This document shows positions 8,058-8,890 of a stretch of 24,668 nt of DNA, one piece after another. Both the position numbers and the translations under genes were made by a program. Origin of the DNA: a virus (taxonomy: Duplodnaviria > Heunggongvirae > Uroviricota > Caudoviricetes); the IMG/VR virus record IMGVR_UViG_2563366840_000014, positions 1 through 24,668 of that record; one strand, 5' to 3'. The notes under the pieces are model-generated. The model searched no databases, was not told where the DNA came from, and was given only the letters and a program-made list of their open reading frames with translations. Every line of letters begins with the position of its first letter. Position 1 is the first letter of the stretch.

Positions 8058-8110
8058 ATGTAGGATATCCAACATGTGAGTGTCAAGAGTTTATGTTGGT
8101 TATCCTACAT
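8058..8110 (-). promoter_or_regulatory. Leftward early promoter with two operator copies (OL/PL-like)
   Basis: 18-mers ATGTAGGATATCCAACAT (8058-8075) and ATGTTGGTTATCCTACAT (8093-8110) flank a minus-strand TTGACA at 8081-8086, with CTACAT at 17-nt spacing. Confidence 0.6.
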
Positions 8111-8126
8111 AAAAAGATAGGCTCAT

Positions 8127-8152
8127 AAAAAAACCGGGGATACCCCGGTTTT
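8127..8152. terminator. Bidirectional rho-independent terminator downstream of cI
   Basis: A-run, stem CCGGGG / CCCCGG with loop ATA, then TTTT. Confidence 0.7.
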
Positions 8153-8172
8153 GCGATAGTGAGGAAGATGTG

Positions 8173-8826
8173 TCAAAAATCCATTATTACTTGTTTGACA
8201 AGACCAACTATTCTGCAGTTCTCACCGCATTCAATAGTTTTATAGTTAGGATTTAGTGGGACGAGATACCTGTTCGGCCAGTCCTCAACAAATTTTTTGA
8301 GTGTCGCTTCTTGCCCACCATTGATATGGGCAACAACGATTTTTCCGTTAATACACTCTGTATCAATAATATCTGGCTCTACGATAACGATAGAACCTTC
8401 TGGTATCGATGGTGAGCCGAGGGGATTGGTCATTGAATCACCACGGACCCGTAGTGCAAATGCCATTTCTGATACAAGGGCGGTAGTATAAACCCACTCT
8501 TCAGCATCTTCTTTCCTGACACCAGGCTCCGTCATTGTCCATGAACCCGCCTGAACCCACGAGATGAGGGGGACTTTTTTAACTGCGAATATTTCAGGTT
8601 TTAGATTTATCTTTGGTTCAGGCGAGCCTTTTCCGCTAACAAGCCACAGAGGATCGCATTTAAGTGCGTTGGCTAGGGCTTGAAGGTTGGCTCCATTTGG
8701 TTGGTAGTCGTCCTTTTCCCATCCAGTAACCGTGACACGGTTCACACCAGTCAAATCAGCCAGTGCTTGTTGTGTCAGGTTCAGTTCTTTTCGCCTTTGG
8801 CGAATACGATCACTCATGTTCATCAT
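8173..8826 (-). CDS. cI: CI-type prophage repressor (XRE-family HTH plus LexA-like S24 peptidase domain)
   Basis: HTH LTQQALADLTGVNRVTVTGWE; C-terminal RVRGDSM (catalytic Ser) and downstream Lys; divergent from a cro-like gene; true start may be the 2nd or 3rd Met. Confidence 0.85.
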   Translation of the reverse strand: MMNMSDRIRQRRKELNLTQQALADLTGVNRVTVTGWEKDDYQPNGANLQALANALKCDPLWLVSGKGSPEPKINLKPEIFAVKKVPLISWVQAGSWTMTEPGVRKEDAEEWVYTTALVSEMAFALRVRGDSMTNPLGSPSIPEGSIVIVEPDIIDTECINGKIVVAHINGGQEATLKKFVEDWPNRYLVPLNPNYKTIECGENCRIVGLVKQVIMDF

Positions 8827-8890
8827 GTAGGCAATCCTACCACATGCCCATGTAGGATTCTTGACATTGGTATGTTGGATATCCTACATT
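8825..8890 (+). promoter_or_regulatory. Rightward early promoter with operators (OR/PR-like) in the cI-cro intergenic region
   Basis: Operator copies at 8825-8840, 8850-8859 and 8872-8889; TTGACA 8861-8866 and CTACAT 8884-8889 at 17-nt spacing; same architecture as the leftward promoter. Confidence 0.6.

Follow-up and report, generated by a model that had tools for sequence, protein, structure and literature searches.

In phage lambda, three operators lie between the divergent cI and cro genes, with the centers of OR1, OR2, and OR3 at about -17, -41, and -64 from PR. The immC regions of phages P22 and 21 combine a repressor with a C2-type DNA-binding domain and a Cro protein of the P22_Cro family, and in P22 the operators are 18 bp long with a 4-bp center, OR3 abutting or overlapping the repressor start codon. 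CP-933P of Escherichia coli O157:H7 (PaaR2/YdaS; promoters PR933P, PRM933P, and PL933P) is a further lambdoid system with 18-bp palindromes, in which paaR2 is leaderless and the -35 and -10 elements of PL are identical to those of PR (PMC8630535).

We analyzed a window of 24,668 nucleotides, by which we mean the whole stretch of DNA under study, and found it to be an E. coli lambdoid prophage adjoining zur, yjbJ, and dinF. The first-pass annotation of its cI region had proposed a lambda-like OL/OR design built on a different operator sequence. This design is supported by a full-length cI, a cro gene, and a conserved layout, but the closest model is P22 immC and not lambda, since it is P22 that the locus resembles in its DNA-binding domain, in the 18-bp length of its sites, and in their spacing. 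From its sequence, the region is very probably the lysis-lysogeny (immunity) switch of the prophage, in which cI dimers would act on five 18-bp sites. As such it is an ordinary lambdoid switch of P22-like textbook design, with no conceptual addition to the lambda/P22 paradigm.

Genes and promoters around cI

The repressor gene cI (8173–8826, minus strand) encodes a 217-aa protein in which Pfam recognizes HTH_3 at residues 8–62 (1e-15) and Peptidase_S24 at residues 86–210 (4e-25). Residues 9–210 align with lambda cI (3bdn, E = 7e-25), a full-length match, and lambda cI is also the best-scoring counterpart of the C-terminal domain. The alignment pairs VQAGSW with VQAGMF of the lambda cleavage site, GDSMT with GNSMT, and TLKKF with FTFKKL, from which we predict cleavage at Ala93-Gly94 and a dyad formed by Ser131 with Lys177 or Lys178. 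With an N-terminal HTH, a C-terminal S24 domain, an Ala-Gly site, and a Ser/Lys dyad, the protein would be a lambdoid autocleaving repressor. Its DNA-binding domain is of the C2 type: residues 4–66 align without gaps to residues 6–68 of P22 C2 (E = 2.6e-15), and the recognition helix lies within GVNRVTVTGWE (residues 27–37).

Divergent from cI and 95 bp away, cro (8922–9119, plus strand) encodes a 65-aa protein matching P22_Cro (PF14549, E = 7.6e-22) and phrog_409, a transcriptional regulator. As in lambda, a cII-like gene follows cro; its 194-aa product (9147–9731, plus strand) matches Phage_CP76 (1.3e-6) and phrog_101, a CII-like activator (3e-62), and is assigned to the YmfL family by RefSeq. 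This last annotation suggested immunity of the type found in the e14 element of E. coli K-12 (YmfK/YmfT/YmfL), which has the same gene order with a YmfL-family third gene and a YmfK S24 domain 33% identical to that of the window. However, the N-terminal domain of YmfK is unrelated (13% identity), and the e14 flanks contain no copy of the window motif, with GGTACA-type repeats in its place. Because repressor N-terminal domain and repeats differ, e14-type immunity was rejected; as an immunity type, only the YmfL-family gene is in common.

Two promoters face outward from the region. PL (8057–8086, minus strand) consists of a -35 TTGACA (8086 to 8081), an 18-nt spacer, and a -10 TACATT (8062 to 8057), and PR (8861–8890, plus strand), which is conserved in the family described below, has the same elements at 8861–8866 and 8885–8890 with the same 18-nt spacer. 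They are the two top-scoring sigma-70 matches in a promoter scan. The twin promoters had been read as TTGACA-N17-CTACAT; both are present, but TTGACA-N18-TACATT, one base off, is the better register and agrees with the consensus at 10 of 12 positions in each. The TACATT register also fits the T that follows the operator in nearly all relatives, and GTGTCAAG, together with the base that gives the final T of TACATT in PL, is conserved in the family.

For cI itself, we read TGGTAGGAT (8834–8842, minus strand), 7 nt upstream of the cI ATG, as the putative extended -10 element of a maintenance promoter, PRM; its TAnnnT is conserved in the family. The minus strand before cI reads TGG-TAGGAT-TGCCTAC-ATG, and from a PRM at this element cI mRNA would begin at A8826 with no leader or almost none, as in lambda and CP-933P paaR2 (PMC8630535). 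For cI transcripts begun further upstream, TAGGA could serve as a Shine-Dalgarno sequence. At its other end, cI is followed by an intrinsic terminator of its own (8130–8152, minus strand), a perfect inverted repeat with a 10-bp stem (AAAACCGGGG/CCCCGGUUUU) and a U run located between the cI stop codon and OL2. Its RNA fold is stable (-17 kcal/mol, z = -3.3), and hairpins resembling it occur in most family members. The window differs here from lambda, as cI is not followed by rexAB and PL is not followed by an N gene.

Predicted operators and their conservation

The pattern ATGTWGGWTATCCWACAT occurs at up to 3 mismatches exactly three times in the 24.7-kb window (8058–8075, 8093–8110, and 8872–8889), against a mean of 0.11 in dinucleotide shuffles, none of which (0 of 100) equaled the observed three. 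Up to 4 mismatches, 4 sites were observed where 0.32 were expected. Chance origin of the sites is ruled out by these shuffles.

On the left, OL1 (8058–8075, ATGTAGGATATCCAACAT) matches the pattern exactly and covers the spacer and -10 of PL, and OL2 (8093–8110, ATGTTGGTTATCCTACAT) lies upstream of the PL -35, its first base 35 bp away from that of OL1. On the right, OR1 (8872–8889, ATGTTGGATATCCTACAT) is again an exact match and covers the spacer and -10 of PR; it has the sequence of OL1 when each is read in the direction of transcription. The other two right-hand sites are weaker. OR3 (8825–8842, ATGTAGGCAATCCTACCA) has 4 mismatches and extends two bases into the cI start codon. OR2 (8850–8867, ATGTAGGATTCTTGACAT) is a hybrid with 5 mismatches (13 of 18 positions matching), in which a good left half-site is joined to a right half that is the -35 of PR. 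Alone, OR2 is not significant, because 6 sites at up to 5 mismatches occur in the window where 2.2 are expected; it is predicted from its position, which corresponds to that of OR2 in P22, and its conservation in relatives. The sequences that had been noted in the first-pass annotation are all present where it placed them, and the consensus scan bore out its view that operators overlap a promoter on each side of cI, the left one pointing leftward (minus strand) and the right one rightward (plus strand). Its "two to three" right-hand sites become three, the copies at 8825–8842 and 8850–8867 being weak.

The five predicted sites share the consensus ATGTAGGATATCCTACAT, with two half-sites of 7 to 9 bp and an AT-rich 4-bp center. 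Relative to PR, their centers lie at about -16.5 (OR1), -38.5 (OR2), and -63.5 (OR3), and relative to PL at about -16.5 (OL1) and -51.5 (OL2). About 0.8 kb separates OL from OR. Three right-hand sites are found as in lambda, but the lambda sites are 17 bp long and unrelated in sequence, only two left-hand sites are evident here, and in the window OR3 overlaps the start codon. CP-933P differs in its half-site (GTTTAGTAA), in the toxin-antitoxin pair of its repressor operon, and in having four equally spaced repeats (PMC8630535).

The likeness to P22 is closer. Taking the record of phage Phi75 (L219, 551–622 and 1322–1387, reverse-complement coordinates) as the P22-type reference, the start-to-start spacings OR3-OR2, OR2-OR1, and OL1-OL2 are 25, 22, and 35 bp in the window versus 25, 23, and 35 bp in Phi75, where OR3 abuts the c2 ATG. 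P22 PL likewise has an operator inside its spacer and a -10 built from the operator end. The rightward promoters differ: relative to the operators, the P22-type PR (TTGACT...GATAAT) lies about 21 bp further left, so that its spacer holds OR2, whereas that of the window holds OR1. Relative to P22, the PR of the window thus seems to have arisen by copying of the PL design.

Related loci number at least about 110; they come from Escherichia, Enterobacter, Erwinia, Pantoea, Proteus, and Morganella and from phage mEp390, and their cI proteins are 47–100% identical to that of the window. We compared 17 representatives and mEp390 (cI about 60% identical), together with prophages of Enterobacter soli, Erwinia tracheiphila, Pantoea brenneri, three Proteus species, and Morganella morganii. 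OL1, OL2, OR3, and OR1 occur at the same spacing in the 17 representatives, in mEp390, and in prophages of six Enterobacterales genera, and OR2 is retained in the 12 representatives that were aligned. The layout persists even where cI identity is no higher than 47–60%. Throughout the loci compared, OR3 overlaps the cI ATG and OR1 starts 47–48 bp to the right of OR3. OL1 and OL2 are 35 bp apart, with the PL -35 in between, in 16 of the 17 representatives (33 bp in the other), in mEp390, and in P22-type immC. The 17 representative loci contain no further sites elsewhere at up to 3 mismatches.

An alignment of 12 diverged representatives separates conserved from variable DNA. OL1 is found at the same place in all 12, and OL2, GTGTCAAG, and OR3 are conserved, as are the left half of OR2 with TTGACA and OR1 with the following T, OR1 being the best-conserved block of the cI-cro intergenic region. 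The left half of OR2, (T/G)GTA(A/G)G, keeps a fixed distance from TTGACA, and in OR3 the segment CATGTAGG is invariant across the family while its non-consensus CCA end is nearly so. The spacers between sites, the cro leader, and the DNA to the left of OL1 are not conserved. Because the spacers vary, the region is not merely slow-evolving, and conserved sites amid variable spacers are the pattern expected of functional operators, a role that the alignment supports.

The cI proteins of the family vary unevenly. GVNRVTVTGWE is invariant except for one Val-to-Leu change, and the lowest identity to the window cI is 63% in the N-terminal and 43% in the C-terminal domain, with 0–37% in the linker of most diverged members. 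Among repressors with the same operators and helix, residues 69–84 (the linker) are almost unalignable and residues 85–217 fall to 43% identity (window 8173–8622 versus L003–L121). This pattern suggests that domains were shuffled while the DNA specificity stayed fixed. In Erwinia tracheiphila (L207, 3275–3924), the cI homologue is about 90% identical but is matched by tblastn in two pieces that meet at residue 162/163, probably owing to a frameshift; the operators are retained.

Proposed repressor action and alternative readings

The proposed switch is favored by sites that occur far above chance, are confined to the flanks of cI, and overlap strong outward sigma-70 promoters. A divergent cro with multiple predicted sites, and a second cluster (OL) over a leftward promoter, fit a cI/Cro switch, the three right-hand sites overlapping the PR -35, the PR -10, and the cI start; the locus agrees with a cI/Cro immunity region in every feature that can be checked from sequence. 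In the mechanism that we propose, cI dimers would bind the five predicted sites, and those on OL1 and OR1, which lie in the spacer and -10 of their promoters, would exclude RNA polymerase and keep early leftward and rightward transcription off. OR2 covers the PR -35 and would probably be filled cooperatively with OR1, as OL2 would be with OL1, through the lambda-like C-terminal domain of cI. The 35 bp between OL1 and OL2 speak against this last point, as they correspond to about 3.3 helical turns and are not obviously in phase for cooperative binding. Through OR3, which overlaps both the cI start and the probable maintenance promoter, cI would limit its own synthesis (negative autoregulation) and Cro would turn cI off; Cro has the P22 Cro fold and would act at the same sites. 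Upon DNA damage, RecA-stimulated self-cleavage of cI at Ala93-Gly94 would lead to prophage induction.

That cI would read these sites is suggested by the way in which site and helix change together. The helix of P22 C2 (VSNVAISQWE versus VNRVTVTGWE here) differs from that of the window, as does its half-site (ATTTAAG versus ATGTAGG); P22 C2, with SNVAISQ in its helix, has ATTTAAG half-sites in the same layout. Since the site sequence changes when the recognition helix changes, in P22 and in e14, we take this co-variation to be the best computational evidence that cI would be the protein that recognizes the sites. Because helix and half-site differ from those of P22, the locus does not share P22 immunity specificity and is predicted to be a separate immunity type, heteroimmune with P22.

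A scan of IMG/VR for the exact 18-mer gave at least 119 loci, 102 of which, among the matches listed, have a cI homologue beside the site (49–100% identity, with values of 100, 92, 84, 80, 75, 70, 66, 51, and 49%). Sixteen others, also among the matches listed, have no cI or cro homologue and are isolated sites, mostly on low-GC (0.31–0.46) contigs. In 596 Gb of representative genomes, the same scan found 93 loci, where our own arithmetic at equal base frequencies gives a chance expectation of about 140 per strand; the multi-site layout was present in 8 of the 93, all of them Enterobacterales prophages with a cI homologue. The isolated loci (the 16 listed from IMG/VR and 85 of the 93 from representative genomes) are compatible with chance, and neither the 596 Gb nor the listed IMG/VR loci gave evidence of extra targets outside the switch.

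A possible, if unlikely, alternative accepts the operators as real but gives the switch a logic different from that of lambda. PRM would be a constitutive extended -10 promoter that yields a leaderless mRNA and is only repressed, via OR3, without activation of cI from OR2, which might amount to little beyond a half-site joined to the -35. The position of TGGTAGGAT just before the cI ATG and the conservation of TAnnnT and of the non-consensus TGG end fit this alternative, and the OR3 half-site may double as the extended -10 for cI mRNA. In lambda, cI activates from position -42. If PRM starts at the cI ATG, the center of OR2 lies at about -32.5, not -42, and lambda-style positive autoregulation cannot be assumed; the 13 of 18 matches of OR2 point the same way. 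Set against this is a layout nearly identical to that of P22 immC, and in P22, repressor bound at OR2 reportedly stimulates PRM. Lambdoid switches do vary, which counts for the alternative, as one study reports that the 933W repressor binds adjacent sites without cooperativity (PMC3317979).

A wider claim, which we regard as doubtful, would combine this autoregulation with the spread of the family. One operator and recognition-helix pair, carried by cI proteins with diverged (43%) or swapped linker and C-terminal domains across at least six Enterobacterales genera, would define a cross-genus homoimmunity group; its maintenance promoter would possibly be an operator-embedded extended -10 giving a leaderless cI mRNA, and, with OR2 at about -32.5, its autoregulation would be unlike lambda class-II activation.

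We think it very unlikely that the palindromes are read mainly by another protein (Cro alone, LexA, or a host factor) and not by cI. Cro-type proteins normally share operators with cI, and the prophage encodes, further downstream, a second protein annotated as "LexA repressor", both of which count for such a reader. However, the motif co-occurs with one invariant cI helix and changes with the helix in P22 and e14. The LexA consensus core is CTGT-N8-ACAG; the motif lacks it, and a LexA box was rejected.

Lastly, it is extremely improbable that the repeats merely accompany a promoter duplication, with PL and PR as paralogous copies and no binding role for the palindrome: a 40-nt inverted repeat (8049–8088/8859–8898, 83% complementary) does contain both promoters with -35, 18-mer, and -10, and PR does look like a PL copy given that P22 has the same layout with a differently placed PR, but OL2 and OR3 lie outside the duplicated core and yet carry the same motif at positions conserved across 47–100% identical cI proteins, and a region that was simply slow to evolve would not have such variable spacers.

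Distribution and neighboring sequences

With cI dimers on the five predicted operators as the preferred reading, the locus represents a fairly common immunity type of E. coli and Stx2c prophages, for which a precise, testable operator set and promoter map is now given. Six phage records (vB_EcoM-720R4, SKA5, Lys8385Vzw, and three Stx2c-converting phages) match the 1.3-kb region at 99.6–100% identity, and it was found in 140 of 5,426 complete E. coli genomes (about 2.6%); one of the isolated phages that carry it came from an O103:H11 strain. Toxin release by Shiga-toxin phages is determined by how stable the switch is. Known operators would allow one to predict which prophages are mutually immune, and the repressor/operator pair, expected to be orthogonal to that of P22, could be used in synthetic circuits. 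We found no published description of the operator string, of the protein accessions, or of mEp390 immunity in open-access text, in which sequences printed in figures are not searchable.

Beyond PL, the first ORFs on the minus strand are 7914–8036, an unannotated 40-aa frame with a CxxC motif, and 7664–7939, whose 91-aa product belongs to phrog_3195, of unknown function; neither matched an N-like antiterminator family. The PL leader RNA folds no better than shuffles (z = -0.26), and nothing convincing as a nut-like boxA/boxB was seen by eye on its transcribed strand. A Q-family antiterminator is annotated further to the right in the matching prophage (L001, 15800–16171).

Just downstream of the predicted PL start, an 86-bp segment (7961–8047) is 97–99% identical in mEp460, Stx2a phages, and P1-like phages, which have other immunity types. 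In the P1-like phages it covers the lipoprotein gene plp at its 3' end and a further 42 nt, and the in-frame TAG is retained in the window at 8002–8004. The segment is also where, on the left side, identity to the Stx2c phages stops. Folded as RNA, it does not surpass shuffled sequences, and it resembles a shared mosaic junction or what is left of a gene. An Rfam search over 7600–9200 gave no RNA element except one sub-threshold match. Further into the early-left region, 7199–7421 (minus strand) matches the STnc100 sRNA of Rfam at 49.1 bits (gathering score 47, E = 6e-8), and this match overlaps a stretch annotated by RefSeq as a frameshifted hypothetical gene (L001, 8186–8489).
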